Below, piece by piece: positions 4,205-27,389 of a DNA stretch of 35,906 nucleotides; the stretch's first letter is position 1; every line of letters starts with the position of its first letter. Below the pieces are notes generated by a model, which ran no database searches, was not told the DNA's origin, and saw only the letters and a list, made by a program, of their open reading frames with translations. This DNA is from an uncultured Gammaproteobacteria bacterium (GTDB lineage: Bacteria; Patescibacteriota; Microgenomatia; CAZETR01; Amesbacteraceae): assembly GCA_964356705.1 (NCBI GenBank), contig CAYHIN010000005.1, forward strand, positions 1 through 35,906, read 5' to 3'. The position numbers and the translations under genes are program-made.

Positions 4205-4245
4205 GTCAAAAATATTAACACCTATTTTGTATAAAAAACAGCTTT

Positions 4246-10899: not shown

Positions 10900-10900
10900 A

Positions 10901-11176
10901 TCACGCGTCAGATTTTCTAAATATATTCATCACTTCCGCCACCGCTTGTGCCGTATCTCCTTCTTTTATCGCGTCAGCGACACATCCTTTCAGATGTTCT
11001 TCCAAGATCAAGTTGTCGATCTCTTTCAATGCTTTTTGCACTGCTTGAGATTGATGGATTACATTCACACAATACGCATCATCATCCACCATTTGTTGCA
11101 CTTTTTTCAGATGCCCCAAAGCGATCTTCAGCCTATGCGCGATTCTTTCTTTAGTGTCCTTCGGTCTGTATGCCAT
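10901..11176 (-). CDS. csoR: CsoR-family copper-sensing repressor
   Basis: RLK...GH, YC..V..Q..AV, HLKGC (Cys-His-Cys ligands). First gene of the cop operon. Confidence 0.9.
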   Translation of the reverse strand: MAYRPKDTKERIAHRLKIALGHLKKVQQMVDDDAYCVNVIHQSQAVQKALKEIDNLILEEHLKGCVADAIKEGDTAQAVAEVMNIFRKSDA

Positions 11177-11222
11177 ATCCCCTGTGTGGGGATATACTAA
11201 GTTTAAAAATCAATATTGTCAA
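11175..11222 (-). promoter_or_regulatory. cop operon promoter with CsoR-type operator
   Basis: TTGACA (11222-11217), 17 bp, TAGTAT (11199-11194). The perfect inverted repeat ATATCCCC-tgtgt-GGGGATAT (11175-11195) has the C/G tracts typical of CsoR operators. Confidence 0.8.
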
Positions 11223-11694: not shown

Positions 11695-11844
11695 ATGATC
11701 AAATCCAAGTGGACCATCTTTGGCCAAAAAGGCCAGCTGAAAAAAACTTACAAAACCATGGGTGAGCTGCAGACCAGAGTAAATCAACTAGAAGAAGAAA
11801 ATGCGACCCTCAAGGATCAAATGCGCCCGCTCGCCTCAGCCTAA
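11695..11844 (+). CDS. Small coiled-coil protein (49 aa)
   Basis: ATG 2 nt after the DUF1761 stop. Heptad pattern LQTRVNQLEEENATLKDQM. Confidence 0.5.
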   Translation: MIKSKWTIFGQKGQLKKTYKTMGELQTRVNQLEEENATLKDQMRPLASA

Positions 11845-12263
11845 GTCAGTTTTCTCTTCGCCTCCAGATAGGCTGACTCAATTAGTTTTTTCAGTACATC
11901 CATATCCACATCCGTAAGCTTACTTATATATAGGCAAGATCCAGAACTCGTTTTATGTTTACCAAGTTTACTCAACACATCTTTATGTCCCTCAAATCCG
12001 CTCATCAGATACAGCGTCAGATTCTGTTTGCGCGGTGAGAATCCCACTAGTGGCCAGTCCCCCTCTTGGGTACTTCGCTCAGATTTGTAGTGATACATCC
12101 CATATCCCACGATACTCGTCCCCCACATTTTTCCTTTCTCACCAGTTATTTTTTCAAACAATTTTAGAAGCTCAAATCCATCTTTTTTCTTGGATTCAGG
12201 TTCAATAGTTTCCAAAAACTCTTTTGGATCCTGATCAGTCAATTTTGTTTTCAGCTCCGCCAC
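11841..12263 (-). CDS. DUF1801 (YdhG-like) protein
   Basis: MWGTSIVGYG.YHY, GFSPRK.NL.LY and LGKHK...SCLYI motifs. Confidence 0.85.
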   Translation of the reverse strand: MAELKTKLTDQDPKEFLETIEPESKKKDGFELLKLFEKITGEKGKMWGTSIVGYGMYHYKSERSTQEGDWPLVGFSPRKQNLTLYLMSGFEGHKDVLSKLGKHKTSSGSCLYISKLTDVDMDVLKKLIESAYLEAKRKLT

Positions 12264-12267
12264 TTCC

Positions 12268-12567
12268 TCATCTCCACACCAGCATTAAAAGCATGGCTGT
12301 GAAAGTAATAACAGCAAATACTCCCACCGTATGCAAAAACAGTTTTACTCCTTCTTTCTTTTTGCCTTCAAAATACAGCATCCCCGGTTGGTACAAAAAC
12401 AGATATCCCATGACAGAGGCAGACAATGTCAGCATAGATAGGGCGAATATTGGGGCCATTATCGTATCATCCGGTTTTGCAAACTTGGTGATCGTCTGCA
12501 TTACGACTGCCACCGCAATCACATACGCCTCCACCAATACCGCATTCTTCACCGCATCCCTACTCAC
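12268..12567 (-). CDS. Small three-TM membrane protein
   Basis: Three hydrophobic segments, LSASVMGYL..P motif, own TGA-TATAGT-N6-GTG promoter. Confidence 0.75.
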   Translation of the reverse strand: MSRDAVKNAVLVEAYVIAVAVVMQTITKFAKPDDTIMAPIFALSMLTLSASVMGYLFLYQPGMLYFEGKKKEGVKLFLHTVGVFAVITFTAMLLMLVWR

Positions 12568-12586
12568 GCCTAAACTATATCACAAA

Positions 12587-12841
12587 TCACTTATCAGTCC
12601 TGTGTGGACACCCGATCCAGCAGCACGGTCTCCTCTTCCCTTTTTTCAGATCCACTTTCACTCTTTCCACATGTTGTTTTCTGGTCTCTTCTTTTTTGAC
12701 AAAAGTCACCCAGCATATCCACTCATTGCGCGCCAACGGCGTCAGACTCTCCCAAGCGGCAAGCACTTTTGCATCAGAGAAAATCTCTCTTAGGTCTGCC
12801 GGCACCTGATGTACTACTCCTCCCATCACAGTCTTAGCCAT
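12587..12841 (-). CDS. YdeI/OmpD-associated family protein
   Basis: VPADL...W..LTPLARNEWICWV...KKEETR...GKRRPCCW motif. Confidence 0.85.
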   Translation of the reverse strand: MAKTVMGGVVHQVPADLREIFSDAKVLAAWESLTPLARNEWICWVTFVKKEETRKQHVERVKVDLKKGKRRPCCWIGCPHRTDK

Positions 12842-12875
12842 AGGACTATTTTATCAAAAAAAATACTACTCAGTT

Positions 12876-14075
12876 TTACCGTGTATACAAAACTGCCTTT
12901 TTTGTAAATCCTGAGACTTCACCACATTCAGATCCAGAAAATACCTCCATTTTTAGCATTCCCATTTCTACCAGTTGATACATCACACATCCTACTGGTG
13001 AATACAGTTTTACTTTTAGATCCTTTGCCAGACTCATTCCATCCCATCTCTCTCCATCGCTTTTCAGATATCCATATTCAAAAAGTGTATATTTCACGAT
13101 TCCATCACCCGGTCCCACTACTTTCGGATCCAGATTATTGTCCCCTATTGCCAGCTGTCGAAATTTCCCCCCAAAGTTTCCAAACGAAGCTATGTATACC
13201 GCAGGATCAATATGATTTGGCACGATTGCCAAATGTGTCTGTGAATACCCATCCATTTTTTGACTCTTTGTTCCCCGGTATCCCTCAGTCCCTTCCAAAA
13301 ACCAGTTTCCAATTAGTTTTCCATCGATGTCATAGTCTATCTTGCCACTAACAGGATGTACCGTTCGTATATATTTAGACACAGCCAATTGTTTCAGTTC
13401 CTCCGTATAGTATTCCAATGGATCCACAGTATGTATTTTCCATCTCTCTTCCTTATAGCTCTCCGAATTTACAAACCCTGGCAGCACCACCTCGGTATCC
13501 CATACGGCAAAATCCAGTGTTTGTCCCCCAATTCGCCCGATTAGTTGCCCCGCTTTTACGGGGATATTCACACTTCGATTTGACCTTCCTTGTTTTACCT
13601 CTCCCGCCGCTTTCAAAATTTCCTCAGACAAGCTCGTGACTAAGTCATAATAATAAAACACTCGACAGCTCATCGAAAAAACCAATCGGTATTCTGTATA
13701 TTCAGGTTTTACTCGTGGTTCAATACTTACGAGTCTTGCGTCAGCCATGGCATACACTTCATATTTGTCTCGTGGTGAACGAAAAACCGTAGGCGAAAAA
13801 TACTGGTGATCTATCGGAGTCACATGATCGCCCACTACTAGTCCATACGGGATAATCATTGAAAAATCCTCATATTGCATTGGCAAATGAGTCAGCTTTA
13901 GTTTCTCCATTCCCTCACACTTCCCACCACTCAATTCCTTTCCTTTTGTCTCCGCCTCACTGCTCCCAGAGCTTATCATTTCCGAAATTTTAGTAACCGG
14001 ACTTTTGCCTGCGTACACTACTACTCCCATAATCACGAGTACTACTACTATTACTCCGATTACGATCCTACCCAT
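12876..14075 (-). CDS. Membrane-anchored secreted protein, possible M23/hybrid-motif-like domain
   Basis: N-terminal TM anchor. VYAMADA and VKAGQLIG segments recall the M23 fold; catalytic HxH is not evident. Confidence 0.7.
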   Translation of the reverse strand: MGRIVIGVIVVVLVIMGVVVYAGKSPVTKISEMISSGSSEAETKGKELSGGKCEGMEKLKLTHLPMQYEDFSMIIPYGLVVGDHVTPIDHQYFSPTVFRSPRDKYEVYAMADARLVSIEPRVKPEYTEYRLVFSMSCRVFYYYDLVTSLSEEILKAAGEVKQGRSNRSVNIPVKAGQLIGRIGGQTLDFAVWDTEVVLPGFVNSESYKEERWKIHTVDPLEYYTEELKQLAVSKYIRTVHPVSGKIDYDIDGKLIGNWFLEGTEGYRGTKSQKMDGYSQTHLAIVPNHIDPAVYIASFGNFGGKFRQLAIGDNNLDPKVVGPGDGIVKYTLFEYGYLKSDGERWDGMSLAKDLKVKLYSPVGCVMYQLVEMGMLKMEVFSGSECGEVSGFTKKAVLYTR

Positions 14076-14100
14076 ACAAACTAGTTTACCTCATTTGCTA

Positions 14101-14457
14101 TCATTCCAGACGTAGAATTTTCTCCATAGTCCTACCTTTCGCCAGCTCATCAATCAGTTTATCCAGATATCGCACCTCTCGCATCAGGGGATCTGTTATC
14201 TCTTCTATTCTCACCCCACAAATTACTCCCTTTATCTGTTTTCGCGCCGGATTAAGCTTGGGCGCCTTTGCAAAAAAAGTTTCAAAGTCTGTTTCTTTTT
14301 CCAGTTGCATCTCCAGCTCATTCTGAGAGTATCCCGTCAACCAGCGAATAATCTCGTCTACTTCTTCTTTCGTTCGTCCTTTCCTCTCGACTTTAGCAAT
14401 ATACAAAGGGTACACCCTCGCCACAGTCATCTTATAGATCCGGTCATTATTCTTCAT
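14101..14457 (-). CDS. DUF2200-family protein
   Basis: [29 protein letters not shown] and [13 protein letters not shown] motifs. Confidence 0.9.
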
Positions 14458-14537
14458 ATCCTTTTATTGCGACGCGTAATACTCCGATCGTCAAATCGTG
14501 AGATGAAGCGTCAAGTTCGGACGAAGTCCGACAGCTT

Positions 14538-14566
14538 AAAATACCCCGACCGTCAGGTCGTGGGTA
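14538..14566 (-). terminator. Intrinsic terminator after DHFR-family gene
   Basis: Minus strand TACCCACGACC-tgac-GGTCGGGGTA followed by TTTT, 2 nt after the stop. Confidence 0.6.
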
Positions 14567-14568
14567 GT

Positions 14569-15162
14569 TTATTCCATTGATCCAGTCTTAACTTCCCCAT
14601 CTCGATGATAGTTAGCAAAGATCACTCCGCTTGGGGTAATGTTTGATTCAACTAGTTTAAACGAAGCAGGGATCGTCCCTTTCTCAAACAACCGTTTTCC
14701 AGCGCCAAGTGTAACAGGAAATATTTTCAGCCAAAATTCATCTATCAAATCAAATTCCATTAATGTCTGAGCAAGATTACCACTTCCATATACTTGTAGA
14801 TCGGGGCCATTTGAGTTCTTCAGCTTTTTTAATTCAGAGTTATCTTTTAGAACGACCGTGTTTTCCCAAGTGGGGTTTATTAAAGTTGTCGAGGCAACGT
14901 ATTTTGTGATTTTATTTACCTGGGGCCACACTTCAATGTGCTGCGGCCAATATCCCGCCCAGATGTCATAGGTTTTACGTCCCAGAAGCAGATCATATTC
15001 CCCGTTCATCTGCTTATCCATTTCTTTCCCCGACTCTTCATCGAAATAAGGAGCGGTCCACCCGCCGTATTCAAAGTCCCCCGAAGTGTCTTCCTCAGGT
15101 CCGCCGGGCGCCTGTATCACACCATCCAGAGTTATAAATTCAAGGACAATAATCTTTCTCAT
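14569..15162 (-). CDS. Dihydrofolate reductase/RibD C-terminal family protein
   Basis: ITLDGVIQAPGG, LLGRKTY, VYGSG.L and P..LGAGKRLF motifs. Confidence 0.9.
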   Translation of the reverse strand: MRKIIVLEFITLDGVIQAPGGPEEDTSGDFEYGGWTAPYFDEESGKEMDKQMNGEYDLLLGRKTYDIWAGYWPQHIEVWPQVNKITKYVASTTLINPTWENTVVLKDNSELKKLKNSNGPDLQVYGSGNLAQTLMEFDLIDEFWLKIFPVTLGAGKRLFEKGTIPASFKLVESNITPSGVIFANYHRDGEVKTGSME

Positions 15163-15191
15163 GTGGCTAGTGTAGCATGAGGATAATTTGT

Positions 15192-15412
15192 TTACACTGG
15201 CCTGCCGAAGTGCTCACCAGACAGAAAATTCTCAACCGTAGGTTCAAGTCCACGACGACGAATAGAGTGGATATTGTCCAATGGGACAAGATCTATCTCA
15301 TATCTAGGGCCAATAAACTTTGGATTACCATAACTATTGCTTCACCGAATTGTAAATTACCAGCAACCGATCTCAAAAACGCATCTGTTATCTCTCTATC
15401 CTCAATTCCCAC
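15192..15412 (-). pseudogene. Probable frameshifted small gene
   Basis: TGA-TAGAAT-N6-GTG at 15412 opens a 39-codon ORF (stop 15293). An overlapping frame runs on to TAA at 15192, so one extra base would give a 73-aa protein. Confidence 0.35.
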
Positions 15413-15481
15413 TCCCAGATTCTATCAAAGTCAGATTCGTTAGATTATCAATCCCAAGTTAGTATAAATCAGGGACGTATC

Positions 15482-18400
15482 CTACAATCCCACCGTAGGT
15501 GCAGCTGGTTCCTCGACTGGTGCAGCTGGCGCACTTTCTGTCGTAGGAGCCGAAGTAGGTTGTTCAGTTGATGTTTGAACTGATTCAACCGTCACAGTTA
15601 TTTCTGTCGCGGTGGTGACAGCCGGGATTTGTTCTACAGAAACTTCTGTTTTAACAGCGGCGATCTCTGTCTGAACAGACTGTGACAAAGTCTCTTCAAC
15701 TGGTGAAGGACTAGAGACCGGACTGGCAAAAATCTCTTCTTGAACTTGGCTAATCGTTTCTTGGAGTAAAGTTTGTTCCTGGGTAAGATTTTGAGACACC
15801 TCACTAGCAGTTTCCTCCAAAACCTGCTGAAATTCTTCCCCACCTACTTGATTAATTACTTTCGCGATCACTGAGCTTTCCTCAATTTGAGTGATGTATG
15901 TTTCCAAAATTTCCGGGCTAGTGACGGCAGTCTCTAATTCCTCCTGAATAATTTCAACCTCGGCTCTGATGGCCACATCAATTTGAGCATCGATAGCCGG
16001 AGGCGATTCTTCCTTGAGTTTGACCAGCGTCTCAATCACTTCAGGCGCAGGCTCGAGCGCTTGGGTAGGATTGTTTGTTACCGTTTCAATAAATTCACTC
16101 ACGATCTGCTCTTCTATCTGTTCAATCGTCTCAATAATCTCAGGTGTTGCCTGCGGTGTTTGCTCAATAATTTCCACCAATTCCTGGATGACTTCCACGT
16201 CACCAATCGTGCTCTTGCCTGTCTGGCTTTGATCGGAAATCAAATCACTTTCAAAAAGAGACTGGGGATTCTCAATAAATTCTTCCACGACTTCTTCTTC
16301 AATGATGGTCTTGATCTCCTCAATTTTCTGTTCAATTGGGGTGGCAACTGATTCCAAAGTACCAGGTGTTTCGACATGGTCTTCAATTTCGATAATAATT
16401 TTTAAGTCCTGGGGTTCGGTTCCTACAACCTCGGTAGCAAACTCCCGTAAAGTCAGGTCATCGGTAATACCAGAGACAATATCTACCAGATTTTCAACTG
16501 CCTCATTCTCCAGGTTGTAGGCCAAAGTCAATGTTTCTTTGTTTTCAAAAGACTCCTTGAGTTCTTCATACGCTTGATAGTGCCGCACTGGATTGCCTGG
16601 CATTCCATCGGCATAGGCGAGCAGTTCCCTCTCCCGTTCCTCTTTATCTATAGTCAAAAGGTTTGCTTCAAAGGCTTTGACCAAACGGATTTCTGAAGCT
16701 TCCAATACTTGACCAATCTTTTCCGGTTGGAAGCGTTTAATTTCAACCAAAAGCTCGATTGCTTTTAGCTCCTTAAACTTACTGCCACTGGCGCCATTAA
16801 CTGTTTGCTCGAGCTTGGCCACTAACACTTGTGCATTGCCACCTGAGAGTTGGAGCAATGTTTCAATGCCATCTTTCAAGATCTGTTGTCTGATTTTTTC
16901 TACCCGTACGTAATCAGCGCCATAGACATGGTCTTCGATCAGCCCAAACACGGTTTGCCTGGCCAAACCGTTTTTGATAATGGCATCAATCAGAAGGTCT
17001 ACCCGCTCGAGTTGCGGCTGTTGCCCCTCCTTCAGTTTTCCCGTGTTTGTTTTAAGGCGGTTAAAATCTTTTTCTATATTCAGGAGAGTTTCGAGCGCCA
17101 AATCTACGCTCTTTCGAGAGTCGCTTTTTTGTAGCAGCAACATAGCTTCCAATGTCCGCTCATTATTTTGCTTGATCAAAAGTTCGACTCGACTAAGCGA
17201 ATCAAAGGTCATGACAAGTTGCAAACGCCTACTCAAATGTTTAAGTGGATAAAGTGGGCTGTCAGGTAAAATTCGTGGTTTTTTGATATCGAGATCCGCA
17301 GCCGTAACACTAAAATCGAGTTTGACTTCCTCACTTTTTTGCCCATCCCTGATCCGAGCTTTGGCCGCCTGCACAATCGCGTGCTGGATATCATGCGACA
17401 GTGGCGCAATAGGAGCAAGAGATATCCCTTCGGGAGTTGTCAGCTGGGGAACATTTCTTGCGGACAACAATTTTTTCAACTCTTGCACTTCTTGACGAAT
17501 GTTCAGGGGCAATTGTTTTTCCAAATCAGTCTCACCTCGGCCGGCAAAGATCGACTGGGTAATTTGCTGCATGACTTCATAAAGTTGCTGTTTTTCAGCC
17601 AAAGCCACTTTTTGAACGACCTGTGCTTTTTTGGCCAAATTGTCATTGAAACTTCTGCCTTCGTATCTTTGAAATGTTTTGTTTACCGCTACAGTTTTGG
17701 TGATATATTGCTCATAATCAGTAAATATCTTAGGGTCGTTCACTTGGGACAGCAGATGTTCGGCACTGATGCCAGCGCTCGCCCTGATAGCTTTATCAAT
17801 GACAGCTCGCTGACCAGCTGGTACCTGCGTCCTCAAATTTTGCAAAATAACCATGCTTTGTGGATGCGAGATCAAAATTCGCACATCGGCATCAGTTGAA
17901 ACAGGGTTATAGGCAAGCTTCGACCGGGTCAAAAACTCACTACTACCAAGTTCTTTGATAAATCTATCCAAAGTCCTGTCTGCCTCTAGACTAAATTGTT
18001 GTTTGAAGTTAGTGGACACCTCCTCCGACGCAGCCACCATTGCATTCAAATTCTGTGTCAGGACTACATCCATCAGGTCAGTGGTGGACAGCTCTTCCGA
18101 TGTCATCTGTTCCAAAAAGCGCGCAATTTTGTTTTGCACACTAGTTTGCATTGTGGCCAATCTGGCAATTTTCTCTGTATCTTGGCCACTGTTAATTGCA
18201 ATCTGCATTTCGCCCAAAATCTTCAAGTCCTCTCGGTTCTTCATCACTCGATCGACATACGCATCAAGATCAGCTTGGTTATCGAGTTCAAAAATCCGCT
18301 CAGCCAACCGTTTCACTGCTACTTCTTTCAGACTATCGATACCCAAAATCATTTCCCGATCAGATAAAAAGTCTTTCATCCGCTCAAACGCTCGCGCTTG

Positions 18401-19279
18401 CAGCAAAGGATCTCCATATGCATAGTGAATATATGACTGTAGCTTTCGATTGCGGACATCGCGGGGCAATCTGAGCATTTTCTTTTCAAAAGCACTCGCC
18501 AGCTCTTTTTCCAAACCGAGTAATTTGAGTCTGGCTTCGGACCTAAGTTTATCTTCAAAATCAATCATGGTTTCCATCGCCTTCAGCTCAGCAAAATCCT
18601 CACCCACAAATGAGGCCACCACCGGAACCGCAATAGAGTGAATTGCCTCCAAACTAGGCGCCGCATCAATAGACCTGACAGCGCTCGCAACCAGATACTG
18701 CAGCCTGGCATCTTCAATGGCTAAATAATCTGTAAACGGCAGTCTGTCCTCAAGCTGCTGGATAATAAGTTGCAAACGGTTGTATTGTTCGATTTGTAAT
18801 GTCAGGACTTCACGGTCGGTTCGAACTTTGGGGTCCGTAACAATTTTGTCCGTCTCAGCACCGATTTGTTTAATTAGAGCAACCAGCTTGTCCCGACCAA
18901 CTTGCCGTTGCAGTTTGCCAATCAGTCGATCAATTTTTTTGATGCGCAACTTGGCACGATCCACTGGATCCCGGGTTGTAAATTCTTTAACATTTACGAC
19001 AATTGACTGGAAAATTCCTTCGTCAGTCGTTTCGACAGGTGCAATAAAAGGCAAAGTGGCATTGGCTTGCTCTTGCTTGATCTGCTGTTGAGCCAGTGTC
19101 TCAATAGCCGCTTGCGTTTCAGCAGGTAACAGCCGTTCTGACTGGGTTAATGACCTGGACCCAAGTATCAGTGTTTCGACAACCCTAGGCGCATATGCCA
19201 AAGCAGCCGTAGCAGAGAAGAAAAACAAAACCAAAATCCAACCGCTCTTTTTGTGCTGAGATTTATTTTCTACAGTCAT
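15482..19279 (-). CDS. Large (1265 aa) membrane-anchored helical protein with duplicated DUF5667-like module and acidic E/T/P-rich tail
   Basis: Start ATG 19279 (MTVENK...) followed by a hydrophobic anchor. ILPDSPLYPLK is DUF5667-like. Internal repeat FAELKAME..GDP..EDLKI / FKELKAIE..GNP..QDLKI. Confidence 0.8.
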   Translation of the reverse strand: MTVENKSQHKKSGWILVLFFFSATAALAYAPRVVETLILGSRSLTQSERLLPAETQAAIETLAQQQIKQEQANATLPFIAPVETTDEGIFQSIVVNVKEFTTRDPVDRAKLRIKKIDRLIGKLQRQVGRDKLVALIKQIGAETDKIVTDPKVRTDREVLTLQIEQYNRLQLIIQQLEDRLPFTDYLAIEDARLQYLVASAVRSIDAAPSLEAIHSIAVPVVASFVGEDFAELKAMETMIDFEDKLRSEARLKLLGLEKELASAFEKKMLRLPRDVRNRKLQSYIHYAYGDPLLQARAFERMKDFLSDREMILGIDSLKEVAVKRLAERIFELDNQADLDAYVDRVMKNREDLKILGEMQIAINSGQDTEKIARLATMQTSVQNKIARFLEQMTSEELSTTDLMDVVLTQNLNAMVAASEEVSTNFKQQFSLEADRTLDRFIKELGSSEFLTRSKLAYNPVSTDADVRILISHPQSMVILQNLRTQVPAGQRAVIDKAIRASAGISAEHLLSQVNDPKIFTDYEQYITKTVAVNKTFQRYEGRSFNDNLAKKAQVVQKVALAEKQQLYEVMQQITQSIFAGRGETDLEKQLPLNIRQEVQELKKLLSARNVPQLTTPEGISLAPIAPLSHDIQHAIVQAAKARIRDGQKSEEVKLDFSVTAADLDIKKPRILPDSPLYPLKHLSRRLQLVMTFDSLSRVELLIKQNNERTLEAMLLLQKSDSRKSVDLALETLLNIEKDFNRLKTNTGKLKEGQQPQLERVDLLIDAIIKNGLARQTVFGLIEDHVYGADYVRVEKIRQQILKDGIETLLQLSGGNAQVLVAKLEQTVNGASGSKFKELKAIELLVEIKRFQPEKIGQVLEASEIRLVKAFEANLLTIDKEERERELLAYADGMPGNPVRHYQAYEELKESFENKETLTLAYNLENEAVENLVDIVSGITDDLTLREFATEVVGTEPQDLKIIIEIEDHVETPGTLESVATPIEQKIEEIKTIIEEEVVEEFIENPQSLFESDLISDQSQTGKSTIGDVEVIQELVEIIEQTPQATPEIIETIEQIEEQIVSEFIETVTNNPTQALEPAPEVIETLVKLKEESPPAIDAQIDVAIRAEVEIIQEELETAVTSPEILETYITQIEESSVIAKVINQVGGEEFQQVLEETASEVSQNLTQEQTLLQETISQVQEEIFASPVSSPSPVEETLSQSVQTEIAAVKTEVSVEQIPAVTTATEITVTVESVQTSTEQPTSAPTTESAPAAPVEEPAAPTVGL

Positions 19280-19362
19280 TTGGGCAGAAATCAGTTCTAC
19301 ATCCAGTCTGAACTGTTTACCCGAAAAACACAAGAAAACGAATTTGGACTGATTCGGCTCTC

Positions 19363-19392
19363 TTGACAAGTATAAAGTATCACGTTATACTT
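19363..19392 (+). promoter_or_regulatory. Promoter of Fic-MerR gene with palindromic operator
   Basis: TTGACA 19363-19368, 17 bp, TATACT 19386-19391. Inverted repeat AAGTATAA-N9-TTATACTT (19368-19392). Confidence 0.75.
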
Positions 19393-19400
19393 AACACTGC

Positions 19401-20387
19401 ATGACTAATATCCTAGCTGTACTCGATAAGAAGAAACAACGACTAGATGGCTTCAGGCCATTCTCTATTGATCAGGTAGCAAACCTCCGTGAGTGGTTTA
19501 AGATCGAGCTAACCTATACTTCTAACGCTATTGAAGGAAATACCCTTTCTCGAGCTGAGACTGCTCTAATAGTAGAAAAGGGGTTAACCGTAGATGGAAA
19601 GACGCTTCAGGAGCATCTAGAGGCGGTAAATCACGCCCAAGCCTTTGATTGGATCATACAACGAATAGACACCACACAGCAGGATATTACCGAAAATACG
19701 ATCTTAGATCTGCACCAACTTATTCTCCAAAAGATTGTTGATAACCAAGCCGGACGATACCGCACTGTGCCAGTTCGCATTGCTGGTTCAACTGTTGTCA
19801 TGCCCAATGCCATGAAGGTCCCCGAACTTATGGGTGTGTACGTCGCATGGCTTCAGAAAAACACGGACAACCCTTTGACTGTAGCTGTTGACGCTCACTT
19901 CAAATTAGTAAGTATTCACCCTTTTGTTGACGGAAATGGCAGAACTGCACGACTTTTAATGAATCTTTTACTTATGCAAGCAGGTTACCCTCCAGCCATT
20001 ATCCGCAAAGAAGAACGCAAACAATATATCGCCAGCATTGAGAAAGCCCAACTTGGAGGATCATTGGCTGATTACTATTCATTAATGTACGAAGCAGTAA
20101 GTCGATCCTTTGATATTTACCTCGAAGCCTTAGAAGGGAAAGAGCAAGAAAAAATTTTAGAAAAGAAAAACGTCCTCAAAATCGGAGAGCTCGCTGAGCT
20201 GGTTGGTGAAACCGTACCAACAATTCGTCACTGGACCAAGGAAGGACTGTTAAATGTAGCTGAGTATTCCCAAGGTGGTTATCAACTATATGGCCAAGAC
20301 CAAGTAACCGTCGTCAAAAAAATCCGAAAATTACAAGATAAGAATCGGTTAACCATCGCTGAGATTAAAAAGAAATTGGCAAATTAG
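19401..20387 (+). CDS. Fic-domain AMPylase fused to C-terminal MerR-type HTH
   Basis: Catalytic HPFVDGNGRTAR, N-terminal inhibitory SNAIEGN (class II Fic), C-terminal LKIGELAELVGETVPTIRHWTKEGLL. Confidence 0.9.
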   Translation: MTNILAVLDKKKQRLDGFRPFSIDQVANLREWFKIELTYTSNAIEGNTLSRAETALIVEKGLTVDGKTLQEHLEAVNHAQAFDWIIQRIDTTQQDITENTILDLHQLILQKIVDNQAGRYRTVPVRIAGSTVVMPNAMKVPELMGVYVAWLQKNTDNPLTVAVDAHFKLVSIHPFVDGNGRTARLLMNLLLMQAGYPPAIIRKEERKQYIASIEKAQLGGSLADYYSLMYEAVSRSFDIYLEALEGKEQEKILEKKNVLKIGELAELVGETVPTIRHWTKEGLLNVAEYSQGGYQLYGQDQVTVVKKIRKLQDKNRLTIAEIKKKLAN

Positions 20388-20408
20388 CTGTCTGTTTATG
20401 TAATTTAG

Positions 20409-20431
20409 TGGTAACTGGGGACGGGTTTCGG
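20409..20431. repeat. 23-bp direct repeat, copy 1
   Basis: TGGTAACTGGGGACGGGTTTCGG, identical to 21199-21221. Confidence 0.9.
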
Positions 20432-20506
20432 GTATCTAACTACCCACTACAAAATCCCAATTAGCCTAATTTACGGGAGCACACTCCTCTAAATTAATAT
20501 TATTTA

Positions 20507-20587
20507 TCAAGGAAACCCACCCTGATTCATCGATTCCCTGGACAACTCAATCGCCCATTTCAAATACTCTTGAGTCTTATCATCCAT
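20507..20587 (-). pseudogene. Truncated nucleoside/guanine deaminase-like gene
   Basis: TGG-TAAAAT-N6-ATG then MDDKTQEYLKWAIELSRESMNQGGFP*, resembling the first helix and GGxP of the cytidine/guanine deaminase fold. No HAE/PCxxC motifs follow. Confidence 0.6.
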
Positions 20588-20603
20588 AATCTGATTTTAC
20601 CAA

Positions 20604-21083
20604 TCACTTAAGTTCTATTTCCACCCTCTTATCAACATATTGATCGTTAACATATTCTCCTTCAGTAAGTTTTGATATCTTAGTCGGGACGGCTTTATAA
20701 ATTCTCCAAGCACCCAAACCAATAACTTCCTCTGTTCTCTTTACTCGAAATTCATCTTTAGTTACTCTCTTGTTTAAGACTTCTATAGCCAGATTTATTT
20801 CATTTTCATCTGATAGTTCCTCTATACTGGCTTCGAAGTAAACACCATCCCCTTGTCCCTCGGGCGCACTTGAATCAAAAATCACGATTGCCACTTGAGG
20901 GTTATCTCTAATGAGTTTTGAATGTTTAGCGTCTTTATTAGACACCCAAAATAAATTGTAGTTATTATCATAAGCGAAGAAAACCGGTGAAATCCACGGT
21001 CTACCATCAAGCGACGTAGTCGCAATAGTTAAATATATATTTTTGGCAATTATTTCCTTAGCCTTTTCAATATACTTATCCAT
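20604..21083 (-). CDS. Pyridoxamine 5'-phosphate oxidase-like (split-barrel flavin-binding) protein
   Basis: YLTIAT...G.PW.SPVFFA, S...A.HSK.I..NPQVAIVIFDS motifs. Confidence 0.85.
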   Translation of the reverse strand: MDKYIEKAKEIIAKNIYLTIATTSLDGRPWISPVFFAYDNNYNLFWVSNKDAKHSKLIRDNPQVAIVIFDSSAPEGQGDGVYFEASIEELSDENEINLAIEVLNKRVTKDEFRVKRTEEVIGLGAWRIYKAVPTKISKLTEGEYVNDQYVDKRVEIELK

Positions 21084-21198
21084 TTCTTAATTTTATCAAA
21101 ATTCAAAAAAAATGAGTCACGCTCCCCTAACGGACTCATTCATTAACGGGCAAGTAATGTTTGATATTGACCTTGAGAGCCTTAAGATATTTCGTAAC

Positions 21199-21221
21199 TG
21201 GTAACTGGGGACGGGTTTCGG
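21199..21221. repeat. 23-bp direct repeat, copy 2
   Basis: TGGTAACTGGGGACGGGTTTCGG, identical to 20409-20431. Confidence 0.9.
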
Positions 21222-21268
21222 ACACGCCTACAAGGCTTTTGTGTCCAGGTCGTATACTTATAGTAGGC

Positions 21269-23743
21269 ATGGCGCTCCCCGATACCAAAGATCAGTACCC
21301 ACAACAATTCGGCTTCCACGATCCCGAGCACTACACTTTCCAGTCTCGCAAAGGCTTAAGCGCTGAAGTAGTCAGAGAAATGTCAGCTATGAAAGGCGAG
21401 CCCTCCTGGATGCTAGACTTTCGCCTCAAAGCCCTGGATATTTTTACCAAAAAACCCATGCCTACCTGGGGCGGAAATATAGATCTCGACTTCGATGACA
21501 TTACCTACTACACCCGGCCTTCAGAACGAACCGAGGCCAGCTGGGACGACGTCCCGGCAGACATCAAAAACACTTTTGACAAACTAGGGATTCCCGAAGC
21601 CGAACGCAAGTTCTTGGCCGGCGCCGGCGCTCAATATGAATCCGAAATGGTCTACCACAGTTTGCAAGAACATCTCAAAGCCCAAGGGGTCATCTTCTTA
21701 AGCTCCGACGATGGTCTCCGCCAACACCCCGAGCTTTTTCGTGAACATTTTGGCACCATCATCACTCCCATGGACAACAAATTTGCAGCTTGCAACAGTG
21801 CCGTCTGGTCAGGCGGCTCATTCCTCTATGTACCAAAAGGGGTTGAAATAGAAATGCCACTCCAAGCCTACTTTCGCCTCAACGCCGAAGGCACAGGTCA
21901 GTTTGAACGCACCCTGATTATTGTCGACGAAGGCGCCAAAGTGCACTATGTCGAGGGTTGCCTTCCCTTAGGTGAACAAGTAAGCCTTGGAGATAGGTGG
22001 GTAAACATTGAAAATGTTAAGTCTGGGGATATTGTCATGAACTCCGACGGCGTTGAAGCCTCAGTGAGTAAAACCCGAACACTTCCCTTTAAGGGTAATC
22101 TGGTTAAGCTCGTACCGATTTCCTCTGAAAATGCTTTACAGGTTACCCCTGAACACCCAGTACTAGGTGTAAAACGCCGAGATGTCCAAACCCCTCGTGC
22201 CGCCCGTAAAAATTGGTTACCTGAAGTCATCACCAAAAAACTTCTCGGAAGAAAACCCGAGTTTATTCCCGCAGGCAAACTCAAACGGGGAGATTTCATG
22301 GTATTTCCCATCAGTAAAACTGTCCGGCCTGACCCAATCCTCACTCCCTCTCTTTTGAAATTACTCGGGTACTATCTCGCAGAAGGGTCTACTTACATGC
22401 ACAAGACTCTAAAACAGCCTATTGTATCTTTCTCTTTTAATGAACAGGAGCGCGAATTAATTGAGGACGCAAAACAATTGATCAAGACTGTAACCAAGAA
22501 GAATGCCATGGAAATCCACCAAAAATCCCGGCACGGCACTGAAGTAAGAGTCTACTCCCAACACCTCATGGATCTATGTGTTCTCCACTGCGGTCGCCAC
22601 GCGTCCCAGAAACAGCTTAGCAAGCAAGTAATGGAACAGCCGCCAAAACTACAAGCTCTTCTTTTAGGAACTTATTTACAGGGAGACGGCAGCGTATATC
22701 TGAAACGTAAACATACCATGATCCGAGCCTGCACTGTTTCACAGGCACTCGCCTGGCAGCTTCAAGAGTTAATTGGACGCCAAGGACATTTTGCTACCAT
22801 AAATATTCGCAAGGGAGGCCAAGACACTATTCTTGGTCGTACAATCCACAGGCGCAACCAATTCATCATTTATTATTCTCCGGACAAACAACAAAGTGAG
22901 GTTCGTCGCAGCAAGGATCACTTTCTGGTTCCCATCAAACACATTGATCACACACCCTATGACGGACCGGTGTTCAACTTCGAGCTCAGTAGCAAGCCAA
23001 ATGCTTACGTAGCTCGCGGATTTGCCGTTCATAACTGTACCGCGCCCTCATACTCCAGGGACTCATTTCATTCTGGCGTGATTGAAATCATCGTCAAAAA
23101 AGGCGCTCATTGTCGCTACACCACCATCCAAAACTGGTCCACCAATGTCTACAACCTGGTCACCCAGCGCGCCATAGTCCACGAAGACGCTTCCATGGAG
23201 TGGGTTGACGCAAATCTGGGATCAAAGTTAACCATGAAATATCCATCTTGTTATCTCGTGGGCGACCGTGCCCACGGCGAGATTCTCTCCATGGCTTTTG
23301 CCGGCCCTGGTCAACACTTAGATACAGGAGGCAAAATTATTCACGGTGCGCCAGACACCTCATCCAAAATCATCTCCAAATCAGTAAGTCTCCGGGGTGG
23401 TCGCACCTCCTATCGCGGCTTACTCAAAGTTTACAAGGGCGCCCAGAACTCCCGCAGCCACGTGGTCTGCGATGCTTTACTCATGGACGATAAGTCTCGT
23501 TCCGACACCTACCCCACCATGGAGATCGACGAAAACGCGGTTACTATTGGTCATGAAGCCACAGTATCAAAGGTCAATGCCGAGCAAATTTTCTACCTTC
23601 AGAACCGAGGACTTTCAGAAAAGGAAGCCATTGGTTTGGTCGTCGGCGGGTTTATAGAAGGGCTAGCTCGAGAGCTTCCCATGGAATTCTCAATCGAGCT
23701 CTATCGTCTTATCCAGCTCCAAATGGCAGGGTCAATTGGTTAA
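21269..23743 (+). CDS. sufB: Fe-S cluster assembly protein SufB, intein-containing (824-aa precursor, 465-aa extein product)
   Basis: AGAGAQYESE, DNKFAA.NSAVWSGGSF.YVPKG, GQFERTLI, VHYVEG|CTAP, YTTIQNWS, MKYPS, HEATVSK motifs. Start ATG 21269 follows TATACT. Confidence 0.95.
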   Translation: MALPDTKDQYPQQFGFHDPEHYTFQSRKGLSAEVVREMSAMKGEPSWMLDFRLKALDIFTKKPMPTWGGNIDLDFDDITYYTRPSERTEASWDDVPADIKNTFDKLGIPEAERKFLAGAGAQYESEMVYHSLQEHLKAQGVIFLSSDDGLRQHPELFREHFGTIITPMDNKFAACNSAVWSGGSFLYVPKGVEIEMPLQAYFRLNAEGTGQFERTLIIVDEGAKVHYVEGCLPLGEQVSLGDRWVNIENVKSGDIVMNSDGVEASVSKTRTLPFKGNLVKLVPISSENALQVTPEHPVLGVKRRDVQTPRAARKNWLPEVITKKLLGRKPEFIPAGKLKRGDFMVFPISKTVRPDPILTPSLLKLLGYYLAEGSTYMHKTLKQPIVSFSFNEQERELIEDAKQLIKTVTKKNAMEIHQKSRHGTEVRVYSQHLMDLCVLHCGRHASQKQLSKQVMEQPPKLQALLLGTYLQGDGSVYLKRKHTMIRACTVSQALAWQLQELIGRQGHFATINIRKGGQDTILGRTIHRRNQFIIYYSPDKQQSEVRRSKDHFLVPIKHIDHTPYDGPVFNFELSSKPNAYVARGFAVHNCTAPSYSRDSFHSGVIEIIVKKGAHCRYTTIQNWSTNVYNLVTQRAIVHEDASMEWVDANLGSKLTMKYPSCYLVGDRAHGEILSMAFAGPGQHLDTGGKIIHGAPDTSSKIISKSVSLRGGRTSYRGLLKVYKGAQNSRSHVVCDALLMDDKSRSDTYPTMEIDENAVTIGHEATVSKVNAEQIFYLQNRGLSEKEAIGLVVGGFIEGLARELPMEFSIELYRLIQLQMAGSIG
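21959..23035 (+). mobile_element. Intein with LAGLIDADG homing endonuclease in sufB (359 aa)
   Basis: Starts CLPLGE (block A), TPEHP (block B), LLGYYLAEGS and LLGTYLQGDGS (LAGLIDADG blocks), VFNFE (block F), ends FAVHN followed by Cys+1. Confidence 0.95.
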
Positions 23744-24174
23744 GAAGAAAATTCTTTTGAAAACTCAATTATCCACTCAATACCGTATTTATCTCTAAAC
23801 ATCCCCGCATATGAGCCCCACGGACTATCCCCTATAGCCCCTTCTACTTCTCCTCCAGCCGAAAGGCCAGTAAATAATCTGTCCGCCTCTTCTTTACTTT
23901 CCGCGACTACCAAAATTTTGCTTCTATTTTCATGCTCATTTACTCGCCCCAAAACCTCCGGAACATCATTTGCAATCAACATAGTGCCAGCGCCAACTGG
24001 TAAGGCAATCTGCATTATTTTGTTTTCTTCCTTTTCTGCTACTGGGAATCCAGCACTAGCAAGATCTTTGAAACGCACTACTTTCGCAAACTCTCCACCA
24101 AAAACAGATTTATAAAACGTAAATGCTTCTTCAGCATTACCATTGAAGTTAATCCAAGGATTAATTGTAGCCAT
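23740..24174 (-). CDS. VOC-family PhnB-like protein
   Basis: INPWINFNGNAEEAFTFYKSVFGG and PWG..AGMFRDKYGIEW motifs. Confidence 0.9.
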   Translation of the reverse strand: MATINPWINFNGNAEEAFTFYKSVFGGEFAKVVRFKDLASAGFPVAEKEENKIMQIALPVGAGTMLIANDVPEVLGRVNEHENRSKILVVAESKEEADRLFTGLSAGGEVEGAIGDSPWGSYAGMFRDKYGIEWIIEFSKEFSS

Positions 24175-24230
24175 ACAGCAATAATAGCAAATTAAAGTTA
24201 GCTCGGCTTGGTTGGCTATGTAGGGAACTT

Positions 24231-24644
24231 CTACCGAGAAAATGCATTGACAATGGCTTCTTTATAGAAATCTGGCATATTAAGCCCTTTTACTTCTTCT
24301 TGGGTAAATGATTCAAACTTTGCTTCTCCAGCTTCTCCTTGAAATTCAAAGTCGCCTACTTTGTTGAGAAGGCTACAAAGATAAGTTACGACCAATACCC
24401 CTTTTGACTCATCCTCAGATTTTTTAATTGTGTAAAGATACGATTGAATAATATCTATTACTTCAGTTTTAAACCCCAACTCTTCTTCAAGCTCTCTGAT
24501 AATTGTTTCTTCAGGTTGTTCTCCTTGGTCTAATTTTCCTCCAGGCAGTTCCCACTCATCTCTTTCATTTTTCCTAAGCCAAACTTTTCCTTCATCAAGA
24601 ATTATTCCTTTAACTGATACGGGCACAAAATAAGCAGCATTCAT
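24231..24644 (-). CDS. Nudix hydrolase
   Basis: WELPGGKLDQGEQPEETIIRELEEELGF is a canonical Nudix box. Confidence 0.9.
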   Translation of the reverse strand: MNAAYFVPVSVKGIILDEGKVWLRKNERDEWELPGGKLDQGEQPEETIIRELEEELGFKTEVIDIIQSYLYTIKKSEDESKGVLVVTYLCSLLNKVGDFEFQGEAGEAKFESFTQEEVKGLNMPDFYKEAIVNAFSR

Positions 24645-24741
24645 TCCTTGATTCTACCAAAAGTTAGAAAAAGAACTTGTGGTATCTCAGTATGACGGTT
24701 TTCGAACTAGCTCCACCTGATAGAAAATACCAGAACCTATT

Positions 24742-25395
24742 TTATCTCCACGGATCAAATGCCATACCAAACCTCACTCTGATTTCACCCAAAAGGTTAA
24801 AGATTGTCATCGCAAAGTGATACAGCCAATCGGCTTTTAATCCATAAAACTGAATGTGAAGATAATTGTTAGGATATGGTTTTATTCCTTTCTCTACCAA
24901 AAGCAACAACTCTCTTTTTCGCTTTGGATTGTTCTTGGATGACATTACCCCAGCAGCCGAAGCCCTTTCTGGAATACTCACATAGGTTATACCCTCAAGT
25001 GTGTAGTTTGTTTTTTCCAACGCATTTGCCTCAACCGTGAGATTTATTCGCCTGCCTCCCATAACAAACGAGCCGTCTGATTCCCATTTGCCATAAAAAT
25101 ACCCAACTTCTAAAAGATGTGGGTGATCGAGTGTTTCTAAGCAAAGATATTTACGGGCAAATGTGAACATTCCTTTGGCGGGATAATAGCCCAACTTCTT
25201 TAATCCAGAATAAAGTACATCCTTACCCTGAAAGTCTACCAGCAAATCAAGATCACCTAAATTGCGATGCAATTTTCCGTTAATGCCAGCCACAACAACC
25301 GAACCAAGAAATCGGTAATTGATTTTGTTTTCCTCCAAGATTTTCAGAACACGTCGAAGAGTAGAAACAACAATCTCAGTATTAAACTCCGTCAT
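24742..25395 (-). CDS. Pol-beta-type nucleotidyltransferase family protein
   Basis: FLGS...HR.LGDLDLLV (hGS-DxD) signature, as in aminoglycoside/lincosamide NTase-like proteins. Confidence 0.65.
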   Translation of the reverse strand: MTEFNTEIVVSTLRRVLKILEENKINYRFLGSVVVAGINGKLHRNLGDLDLLVDFQGKDVLYSGLKKLGYYPAKGMFTFARKYLCLETLDHPHLLEVGYFYGKWESDGSFVMGGRRINLTVEANALEKTNYTLEGITYVSIPERASAAGVMSSKNNPKRKRELLLLVEKGIKPYPNNYLHIQFYGLKADWLYHFAMTIFNLLGEIRVRFGMAFDPWR

Positions 25396-25415
25396 GAAAG
25401 TAAAATTATTACAGC

Positions 25416-25766
25416 CTAATAAAATAGAATCTGAAAATAAAAGATCAAAAATACCAAAATATGCACTGGAGCAGTAACCAACCCTGGAACATACTTTTTA
25501 ACACACCCCGACCAAACAAGATGCTGAACACCGTTAGCAAACATTAGAGCCAAAAAAAATCCTAATAATCCATCTCTAGCGGGAAAACCATGGTTAAAAA
25601 TCACCATTCCCCAAAACAAACTAAAGCAAATTTCAAAGACTAGGAACACCTCAAATGGCATTTTGAACACATACCACTTTTTGTGAAAGCCAGTTAATAG
25701 CTCTTCAAACGAGTGTAAAAGCTGAACGCCAAAAGAAATAAGTGCACATTGATCTAAAATAGTCAT
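25416..25766 (-). CDS. HXXEE-domain membrane protein
   Basis: LHSFEE, N..QH and YVPGL.TA motifs with hydrophobic segments. Confidence 0.8.
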   Translation of the reverse strand: MTILDQCALISFGVQLLHSFEELLTGFHKKWYVFKMPFEVFLVFEICFSLFWGMVIFNHGFPARDGLLGFFLALMFANGVQHLVWSGCVKKYVPGLVTAPVHILVFLIFYFQILFY

Positions 25767-26224
25767 TAATTAAGTGTATCAGAAGTCCGAACGTCTAACT
25801 CTGGATGAAAAAAATTCATCTCAAATATCATTTCGGGCTCTTTATTATAATCTGTGTATCGTATCCAAGTTGGTTTTATTTTCAGATAAACCTGATTCGG
25901 ATGAGCTTCATATTTCTTTGAACTAGGAGTTTTTTGAAAATATATGTTTTTGTATTCTTTCAGTTCGTCACCTTCCAAAACTGAAGCCACCCCCTCGTAT
26001 TGAAGAGTTATTTTCTCGTTGTTTCCAAATACAATTGCGCAATTGGGATTCTTCTGAATATTATTGAACTTTCTTGTTGTAGTATAGGTACCAAAGACCA
26101 AGCTCAAATCATCTGCTGAAGCAAATCCAACTAGCGCTGCCTCGGGTTTATCAACTCCGATAGTCGATATAACCATGTGAATTTGACTATTTAAAAATTC
26201 GCGTACTAAATTAGATTTATCCAC
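25766..26224 (-). CDS. Pyridoxamine 5'-phosphate oxidase-like protein
   Basis: VIST...PEAALVGF, TRKF.NI.KNP, TLQYEG.A, PTWIRYTD motifs. TGA-TATAAT-N6-GTG promoter. Confidence 0.85.
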   Translation of the reverse strand: MDKSNLVREFLNSQIHMVISTIGVDKPEAALVGFASADDLSLVFGTYTTTRKFNNIQKNPNCAIVFGNNEKITLQYEGVASVLEGDELKEYKNIYFQKTPSSKKYEAHPNQVYLKIKPTWIRYTDYNKEPEMIFEMNFFHPELDVRTSDTLN

Positions 26225-26279
26225 TGAATAATTATATCAAAGCCTCGAAAGCCCAACTCGTGGCAATGAGAATATGAGC

Positions 26280-27302
26280 CTAGTTTTTTGCAGACTTACT
26301 CTCCTCCTTAATCAATTTTTTCACCACTCTATCAAAATCAGACTCAATAGGTTGGGTCTTATTAAATTCCTTATACTCCCCCTGAGCTTTTTTGTCAGCA
26401 TCGTCTTTGGAAATCTTTCCTTTTCCATCCAGTATCTTATATTCATTGAAGGTCAGAAATTTGTTTACACTCTGGGCAAACTCGTCCATAGTGAACGCTT
26501 GTTTGTTCTCGATCAAATTCTCCACATAATCAAAAAAACCAGTTACAGTCCTCTCCAATCTGCGGATTTCATCATGAGCTAAATAATTTTTGGCCACAGT
26601 CACATCACTTACCAATATCCTCCCCACGGGGGCATTCTTCCAAGTCGAAAGGCCCATATTTGGCCTCTTACGATCAGACTTAGTAACCACTATCTCAGCG
26701 GCCGTCTGTCCAGTTATTGCGTAGTGGAATTTATTTTGCACCGTAGCAAAAAAGTCTTTTGTAGACTGGGATAGTGGGTCATAGTCAATGCTGCATTCGG
26801 CAAAGATATCTGCTATCTGCTGATAAACCCGTCTCTCACTGGCGCGAATCGAGCGAACCTTTTCTAATAGCTCTCTAAAATAGTCCTGGCCAAAGACATT
26901 TTTGCCCTGCTTCAGCCGCTCATCGTCCAAAGCAAACCCCTTGACAATAAAGTCCCGCAATATCCCCGTCGCCCAGATTCTAAACTGAGTAGCCCGCTGC
27001 GAGTTAACCCTATACCCTACTGCAATAATCGCATCCAAATTATAGAAATTCGTAAGGTATTGTTTTCCGTCTGGTGCAGTTATTCGAATTTTTCGAACAA
27101 CTGAATCTTCAGATAGTTCGGCACTATCAAATATCTCTTTCAGATGATAGTTAACCGTGTGCGTTTCCACTCCAAACAGCTCGGCCATCATCTTCTGGGT
27201 CAACCATAGGGTCTCATCCTGGACAGACACATCCAACCTCACGTCACCGTTTGGAGAGGTGTAGAGAACAAATTTTTCAACTTGAGTTAAATCCTTATCC
27301 AT
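26280..27302 (-). CDS. RhuM-family (virulence protein RhuM/DNA-binding) protein
   Basis: ETLWLTQK.MAELF, YNLDAIIAVGYRVNS.RATQFR.WAT, IRASERR.YQ, VQNK.H.AI.G.TAAE motifs. Confidence 0.9.
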   Translation of the reverse strand: MDKDLTQVEKFVLYTSPNGDVRLDVSVQDETLWLTQKMMAELFGVETHTVNYHLKEIFDSAELSEDSVVRKIRITAPDGKQYLTNFYNLDAIIAVGYRVNSQRATQFRIWATGILRDFIVKGFALDDERLKQGKNVFGQDYFRELLEKVRSIRASERRVYQQIADIFAECSIDYDPLSQSTKDFFATVQNKFHYAITGQTAAEIVVTKSDRKRPNMGLSTWKNAPVGRILVSDVTVAKNYLAHDEIRRLERTVTGFFDYVENLIENKQAFTMDEFAQSVNKFLTFNEYKILDGKGKISKDDADKKAQGEYKEFNKTQPIESDFDRVVKKLIKEESKSAKN

Positions 27303-27317
27303 ATCAAAAAACTCTTG

Positions 27318-27389
27318 CTCCCCCGCGAGGATTCGAACCTCGAACCTTGAAGTTAACAGCTTCCTGCTCTACCGTTGAGCTACAGGGGA
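27318..27389 (-). tRNA. tRNA-Asn (GTT), CCA not encoded
   Basis: TCCCCTG-TA-GCTC-AACGGTA-GAGC-A-GGAAG-CT-GTT-AA-CTTCA-AGGTT-CGAGG-TTCGAAT-CCTCG-CGGGGGA-G. TGG-TATAAT upstream at 27423-27415. Confidence 0.95.

Follow-up and report, generated by a model that had tools for sequence, protein, structure and literature searches.

A predicted leaderless promoter layout is widespread in a Microgenomates-type bacterium and clusters in a variable gene zone beside tRNA-Asn

We analysed a window of 35,906 bp that comprises the entire contig C5 of an 852 kb assembly (70 contigs, 45% GC, 93% complete) of an ultra-small bacterium of the candidate phyla radiation (CPR), Microgenomates/Amesbacteria type. The stretch of interest extends from 12.3 to 27.3 kb of this window and carries mostly minus-strand genes up to a tRNA-Asn gene (Table 1). 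The element in question is an extended -10 box, TGN-TANNNT, placed exactly six nucleotides (N6) before an ATG or GTG start codon. Eight genes of the stretch, seven of them listed in an original prediction made for this DNA, each have a TGN box of their own at N6. Among these, the gene for the open reading frame (ORF) of 99 aa heads a two-gene unit in which a DUF1801 gene (11841-12263) begins 4 nt past its stop codon, and the ATG of the HXXEE-domain gene overlaps the stop codon of the preceding gene. We considered whether the two PNPOx-family genes are recent duplicates with a copied promoter and rejected this, the two being 26% identical over 73 residues.

The original prediction described nine sites in front of nine ORFs as an array of self-contained leaderless cassettes. 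All nine sites lie where they had been placed, each as TGN-TANNNT exactly 6 nt before ATG or GTG on the minus strand. In the window, TGNTANNNT-N6-RTG occurs 11 times, compared with 2.07 +/- 1.37 times in dinucleotide shuffles (n=100), none of which contained 11 or more, and all 11 lie in the interval 12565-26239 of the minus strand. One of the two sites that had not been listed (25764-25781) precedes the HXXEE-domain gene (25416-25766); the other (23552-23569) is antisense within sufB, is not followed by an ORF of at least 50 aa, and is probably one of the approximately two chance occurrences expected. Seven of the nine listed sites precede ORFs of 84-197 aa, whereas those at 15412 and 20587 lead only into ORFs of 39 and 26 aa, respectively. 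Scanned against Pfam, three short ORFs yielded no meaningful match. For the 39-aa ORF, there is neither a Pfam family nor a convincing relative among 41 genomes, and its site may mark a decayed gene or a small protein or serve as the promoter of something else. Among the five near variants that had also been reported, those at 33271, 14075 and 4204 do bear TANNNT, at N6 or N7, whereas the one at 27543 lacks the A at the second position and the hexamer at 11270 is not a TANNNT.

Table 1. Coordinates of genes, repeats, promoter sites and near variants in the window.
Feature	Position	Strand	Start-proximal signal	Remark
Near variant	4204		TGT-TAATAT-N7-ATG	Precedes 29-aa gene remnant
Near variant	11270		TTGACA-17-CATGAT-N7-ATG	Not TANNNT
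99-aa membrane-type ORF	12268..12582	-	TGATATAGT-N6-GTG	46-48% identical homologues in relatives G017 and G036
OmdA/YdeI-family gene, 84 aa	12587..12856	-	TGATAAAAT-N6-ATG	Pfam PF13376, 1.8e-13
399-aa ORF	12876..14091	-	Near variant TAAACT-N7-ATG	No known family
Near variant	14075		TAAACT-N7-ATG	
DUF2200 gene	14101..14457	-	No leaderless-type promoter	First gene on this side common with the same-genus genome
RibD_C (dihydrofolate-reductase-like) gene, 197 aa	14569..15177	-	TGCTACACT-N6-ATG	
39-aa ORF	15293..15427	-	TGATAGAAT-N6-GTG	
1295-aa ORF	15482..19369	-	No N6 box at longest start	DUF5667 domain
Fic-MerR fusion gene	19363..20387	+	TTGACA-17-TATACT	Promoter ends 9 nt 5' of ATG
23-bp perfect direct repeat, left copy	20409..20431	+		
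Deaminase stub, 26 codons	20507..20602	-	TGGTAAAAT-N6-ATG	Start of a cytidine-deaminase-fold gene, remainder missing
PNPOx-family gene 1, 159 aa	20604..21098	-	TGATAAAAT-N6-ATG	GC 0.358
SufB-like gene with LAGLIDADG intein	21161..23743	+		Only SUFBD_core match of the assembly
23-bp direct repeat, right copy	21199..21221	+		5' of in-frame sufB ATG at 21269
Glyoxalase/PhnB-like gene, 144 aa	23740..24189	-	TGCTATTAT-N6-ATG	
NUDIX gene, 137 aa	24231..24659	-	TGGTAGAAT-N6-ATG	GC 0.362
217-aa ORF	24742..25395	-	TAATTT-N7-ATG, read by eye	No known family
HXXEE-domain gene, 116 aa	25416..25781	-	TGATACACT-N6-ATG	GC 0.353; box inside upstream gene
PNPOx-family gene 2, 152 aa	25766..26239	-	TGATATAAT-N6-GTG	GC 0.346
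RhuM-family gene	26280..27302	-		Adjoins tRNA directly
tRNA-Asn (GTT)	27317..27389	-		Conserved border of variable zone
Near variant	27543		TGC-TCTAAT-N6-ATG	No A at hexamer position 2
Near variant	33271		TATAAT-N6-ATG	TG absent

The spacing of the box is not a peculiarity of the stretch. Genome-wide, TGNTANNNT occurs 1283 times, and a start codon opening at least 60 codons follows exactly 6 nt on in 78 cases, compared with 6-27 cases at each of the other spacers between 0 and 30 nt. Gene counts were taken from a crude ORF caller (1005 genes) that uses the longest ORF or shifts to an in-frame start bearing the motif. TANNNT is present at N6 of 175 of 945 longest-ORF starts (18.5%) and of 0.63% of 13,418 internal in-frame start codons; the TGN form is present at 74 longest-ORF starts and at no internal in-frame start. 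When nearby in-frame starts are allowed, 235 of the 1005 genes have an N6 box, which is of the TGN form in 78.

The aligned sites have the consensus TAtaaT, with T at -15 in 50% and G at -14 in 45%, and a weak TTG is located 17 nt further upstream. Bacterial promoters of this kind are divided into those with a -35 and a -10 box and extended -10 promoters, and in the latter the TGn extension makes the -35 box unnecessary. The same division is visible here: a -35 match of at least 4/6 is present at 56 of 157 plain sites (35.7%), at 11 of 78 TGN sites (14.1%) and at 13.5% of non-motif starts. Moreover, in the stretch all eight TGN sites before called genes have a -35 score of at most 3/6. The sharp peak at N6 together with the background-level -35 in the TGN class indirectly supports the earlier proposal of a compact promoter with its whole signal in about 15 bp. 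From its anatomy, the motif is likely an ordinary sigma-70-type -10 box, often with a TGn extension. Motif genes have TTG starts less often (15 of 235) than other genes do (110 of 712), which is expected if transcription must start on a purine and which lends this reading weak support.

No Shine-Dalgarno (SD) peak is visible upstream of starts genome-wide. 4-mers complementary to the anti-SD sequence are present upstream of 29% of non-motif starts, 73 of 235 motif genes (31%) and 34% of internal controls. The anti-SD was read from relatives, and the 16S gene was not found in the present assembly; the 16S rRNA of four relatives (one of the same genus, two of the same family and one of the same class) ends in GGATCACCTCCTTT, i.e. 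the anti-SD is canonical. In motif genes, the 6 nt between box and start codon leave no room for an SD. Among same-strand neighbours, 105 of 693 pairs genome-wide overlap by exactly 4 nt, and only 6 of these 105 involve a motif gene, compared with 90 of 224 (approximately 40%) at gaps of 11-100 nt. In a genome with no detectable SD use, the 4-nt overlaps are consistent with coupled translation as the chief alternative to leaderless starts: a downstream gene would be translated either by tight coupling or from a leaderless transcript of its own. The genes in the stretch are separated by gaps, and thus each bears its own box.

We examined 115 motif genes from ten other contigs, and judged core and accessory genes by Pfam names only. 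The layout is not special to accessory genes: it precedes many core genes and occurs across the class. The Pfam names include LepA, S16, RNase HII, LeuRS and class-I W/Y tRNA synthetase; Mur ligase, PilB, class-I aldolase, TIM and RpiB; as well as QueA, TGT, RelA/SpoT, the CCA-adding enzyme and TsaE. The same set also includes antitoxins, NUDIX hydrolases and many family-less ORFs. The TGN form accounts for 39 of the 115, and these 39 comprise about 10 evident housekeeping genes and 16 genes without a Pfam match. In a lineage sample of approximately 400 kb from 22 relatives (same genus, 12 family loci and 8 class loci), the N6 spacer is present at 7 of 27 first starts in the same genus, 31 of 233 in the family loci and 27 of 200 in the class loci, compared with 3-16 for any other spacer. 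Altogether, these observations make it probable that expression by the leaderless layout extends over the whole genome of this Microgenomates-type CPR bacterium and over its lineage.

The stretch itself is a zone of gene turnover, as had been proposed, and its content beyond tRNA-Asn differs in every relative examined. Family and class relatives share the synteny of DUF4012, DnaG, RpoD and tRNA-Asn. From tRNA-Asn to the DUF2200 gene, the distance is approximately 12.9 kb here (12 called genes and two short promoter-led ORFs) and approximately 1.6 kb with three small genes in G001, a genome of the same genus. The flanks in G001 and in the relative G014 carry genes of the same functional theme, i.e. 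GNAT, PhnB-like, TspO, YdeI with DUF1905, cupin, pentapeptide and DUF1801 genes. In 11 further relatives (64 of 117 flank ORFs scanned, namely those closest to the tRNA), the set of genes changes from one genome to the next and includes ABC-3C and AbiE defence genes, GIY-YIG, metal efflux, peptidases, glycosyltransferases, NUDIX and many unknowns. In G014, counterparts of the genes in the stretch are dispersed on one contig, with RibD_C at approximately 441 kb, the glyoxalase at approximately 942 kb and HXXEE at approximately 971 kb. Four genes (both PNPOx genes, NUDIX and HXXEE), with a GC content of 0.346-0.362, fall in the bottom 1-2% of the 1005 genes; the GC content of the other genes of the stretch, e.g. 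OmdA, the 1295-aa ORF and SufB, is ordinary. The closest relatives of PNPOx gene 1, at 50-66% identity, are from Acidobacteriota, Melainabacteria, Saccharimonadales and metagenome-assembled genomes of Gammaproteobacteria; at 14 loci of PNPOx relatives in other phyla, there was no convincing deaminase gene alongside, the sole match having an E value of 0.016. In total, the region from 12.3 to 27.3 kb is best described as a plasticity zone adjacent to tRNA-Asn and made up of separately acquired small genes.

Two observations concern the borders of this zone. The tRNA-Asn gene of the window is intron-free, and in G001 a group I intron (Rfam RF00028, 57.8 bits, L011 8239-8433) interrupts the corresponding gene (L011 8217-8479); split DNA matches suggest an intron in tRNA-Asn also of G014, G017, G010, G005 and G030. 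Next to the genus-conserved DUF2200 gene lies a spacer of approximately 120 nt (14458-14580) with two short G+C hairpins. This spacer is a dispersed element with partial copies on contigs C34, C9 and C52 and matches in many relatives, and it had no Rfam match at gathering score.

Turnover is marked in the window by two gene stubs and one 23-bp repeat. The 26-codon ORF at 20587 matches the N terminus of full-length ORFs of 150-192 aa in G040 and G034, the G034 counterpart being a dCMP_cyt_deam_1 protein, and the sequence past codon 26 is unrelated. Outside the flagged stretch, at 4115-4219, a 29-aa ORF follows TGTTAATAT-N7-ATG; both of its termini match a 145-aa ORF of G001, and therefore it derives from a glyoxalase/VOC gene by an internal deletion that kept the frame. 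In both the deaminase stub and the VOC remnant, the promoter and the start outlasted the gene. The 23-bp perfect direct repeat has only two copies in the genome, which bracket a low-GC unit of 790 bp with the deaminase stub and PNPOx gene 1. The 23-mer was found neither in the metagenome contigs nor, when as many as 6 mismatches were allowed, in 11 related loci (L002-L012). The bracketing by the repeat does fit a discrete insertion.

Gain and loss had been expected to break the sequence just upstream of the TGN, and this was the case in two of four testable orthologue pairs; at an orthologue identity of 65-80%, breakpoints are not precisely placeable. For the glyoxalase gene, homology between the present genome (G000) and G014 continues through the promoter to approximately -27 and then ends. 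Three OmdA orthologues, including those in G014 and G017, keep TAAAAT at N6, and G017 additionally shares TTTGATAAAAT. In the RibD_C orthologue of G014, another TGN box occupies this position (TGGTAGAGT-N6-ATG). In G034, RibD_C directly follows a tRNA 3' end (L004 ~2085-2130): its start is 9 nt past the apparent tRNA end (GGTTCGAATCC...CCA), there is no -10 box, and this arrangement suggests that the gene may be co-transcribed with the tRNA. The DUF1801 pair failed: homology to G001, which has TTTGGTAAAAT-N6-GTG, begins exactly at the GTG, and here the 3' end of the 99-aa gene fills the place of the promoter, which is lost. Thus, relocated orthologues usually keep the N6 -10 box, as any functional promoter would, but not always.

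We propose that a box located 6 nt before ATG or GTG would make RNA polymerase start on the start codon and would thereby give a leaderless mRNA on which 70S ribosomes could initiate. Small, gap-separated detoxification and house-cleaning genes would enter the zone separately, and each would have a compact promoter of its own that lacks a -35 box, giving the appearance of a cassette array. Taken as a whole, we consider it likely that lineage-wide leaderless promoters, which are densest in a fast-changing tRNA-adjacent zone, account for the array, and that the array is not integron-like.

The integron-like array of the original prediction would be a dedicated system in which promoter-plus-gene modules are moved as units by specific recombination. 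The variability of the zone between relatives and the genome's highest density of compact TGN promoters that lack a -35 box speak for such a system, as do the low-GC unit of deaminase stub and PNPOx gene bracketed by a unique repeat and the finding that the glyoxalase and OmdA genes share the promoter, but not its upstream region, with relatives in which these genes are located elsewhere. However, integron cassettes are promoterless, the opposite of an array in which every gene has its own promoter. Moreover, as had been stated from the outset, the window contains neither an integrase nor recognisable attC sites: no recombinase family and no mobility genes were found among the 36 window ORFs scanned, and the only two tyrosine recombinase genes of the genome are on contigs C41 and C51. 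The gene junctions have no attC-like or otherwise shared repeat family and no recurring imperfect palindrome, the 23-bp pair being the sole perfect repeat, and copies of the tRNA end were likewise not detected in the zone. The identical promoter type also precedes core genes, the DUF1801 pair breaks between promoter and start codon, and the 23-mer is missing from the metagenome contigs and the 11 related loci. Modules insulated from each other are not supported either, with 14 terminator-like sites compared with 13.8 expected. In total, we regard a dedicated cassette system as very improbable.

Two further explanations concern the cluster and the box. The local cluster could be an effect of ascertainment, i.e. 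a genome-wide motif that shows wherever short genes share a strand, with no special local biology. The region was chosen because of its motif, the TGN form is about twice as common in small genes (21 of 178) as in large genes (10 of 196), and genes with any N6 box, 9 of 16 in the stretch, are nearly matched by 8 of 16 on contig C1. By contrast, in a genome-wide sliding window of 16 genes, the eight TGN-type genes of the stretch compare with at most four on any other contig, and eight were reached in only 3 of 2000 label permutations; the region also stands out independently by its low GC, gene stubs and non-conserved content. We therefore find this explanation unlikely. As for the box, it might act in the mRNA, as an A/U-rich translation enhancer or as an unstructured stretch of a longer leader, with transcription starting further upstream. 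SD-poor genomes rely on A/U-rich, unstructured start regions, non-motif starts are A-rich upstream as well, and the lack of an excess of terminators between genes makes read-through transcripts likely. The combination of T-A-n-n-n-T with TG 2-3 bases upstream and, in the non-TG class, TTG 17 nt up is the anatomy of a sigma-70 promoter, however, and the spacing is sharp at 6 nt. In addition, a study in Deinococcus reports the experimental validation, as a promoter, of a -10 box adjoining ORFs, the same layout (PMC12340547). An mRNA-level signal thus appears quite improbable.

Several observations weigh against leaderless promoters that are densest in the zone. Counted with any N6 box, the density in the stretch is not exceptional. 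Spacing classes predict 1.39 TGN genes among 14 genes where eight are seen, a comparison made post hoc, and gene spacing does not fully explain the local TGN excess. There is no link to low GC genome-wide, the GC content being 0.443 for TGN genes and 0.448 for others. The crude start assignment makes any SD signal harder to see and gives non-motif genes too many TTG and GTG starts, and this weakens the arguments from SD and TTG. The in-frame spacers N0, N3, N9 and N12 have 31-66 of 945 starts because upstream TAA and TAG stop codons inflate them; an origin of the N6 peak in in-frame stop codons only was rejected, given 175 starts at N6, and the 58% of hexamers that begin with TAT or TAC also count against it. 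Finally, the leaderless reading is a prediction from the statistics of spacing, which support it well.

On top of the promoter layout, in CPR bacteria that translate without SD sites the start-fused extended -10 of approximately 15 bp might be a complete expression signal, such that any gene that carries it would be expressed wherever it landed, and the tRNA-Asn flank might serve as a landing zone that requires no recombinase. Genes would accumulate there, be exchanged, perhaps by DNA uptake and recombination, and decay, and the 23-bp repeat would be the scar of an insertion. As a joint proposal, we regard this as conceivable but doubtful. If it were true, fusion of promoter and start codon would drive the portability of genes in ultra-small bacteria.

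The layout resembles the TA-led or leaderless genes of Actinobacteria and Deinococcus-Thermus in the TANNNT hexamer with its first T approximately 12 nt before the start, in its presence at more than 20% of genes, in a TG peak at lower GC, and in its use by core genes. Zheng et al. 2011 (PMC3160421) recognise leaderless genes by a TANNNT located approximately 12 nt before the start and describe a TG peak where genomic GC is low, and leaderless genes are reported from the transcriptomes of M. tuberculosis and D. deserti (PMC3898074, PMC4007540). By contrast, the host here is a CPR/Microgenomates bacterium, there is no detectable SD class alongside, and the layout is known from the sequence. In the literature on CPR, Patescibacteria and Saccharibacteria that turned up in the search, we found no description of a leaderless layout; a data set of transcription starts for a CPR bacterium, Nanosynbacter lyticus, is named in a table of PMC12641261.

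With extended -10 promoters, the layout shares TG at -15/-14 and, in the TGN class, the background-level -35; it differs in that the box would be fused to the start codon, with the expression signals confined to about 15 bp. The zone is like tRNA-adjacent islands and plasticity zones in its tRNA-Asn flank, its variable content and the deviant GC of several genes, with a RhuM-family gene at the tRNA border and relatives carrying ABC-3C and AbiE defence genes there, but it differs in that no integrase or mobility genes were found in the window and no repeat of the tRNA end in the zone. Similarly, it is like integrons and sedentary chromosomal integrons in being a one-strand array of small, unrelated, mostly accessory genes, but it has no intI, attI or attC, and its genes have individual promoters where integron cassettes depend on a common Pc.

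Tools for CPR/Patescibacteria, gene callers as well as expression vectors, presuppose ribosome-binding sites. If at least a fifth of Microgenomates genes are leaderless and without SD, start annotation, operon prediction and heterologous expression would need adjusting. Moreover, the region is a concrete hotspot of gene turnover in a type of genome that is usually called streamlined and static.

Two neighbouring loci deserve mention. In relatives, matches to sufB are contiguous in several cases and are without an intein; no SufD-like partner is present in the 93%-complete assembly, and G030 and G008 have a second SufBD gene adjoining. At 7493-11215, the window contains a copper-type operon with a CsoR-family repressor, a DsbD_2-cupredoxin protein, a small ORF, and a P-type ATPase with an HMA domain. 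Directly 5' of the ATG of the repressor gene lies an interrupted G+C-rich palindrome, ATATCCCC...GGGGATAT, which looks like a putative operator of this operon.

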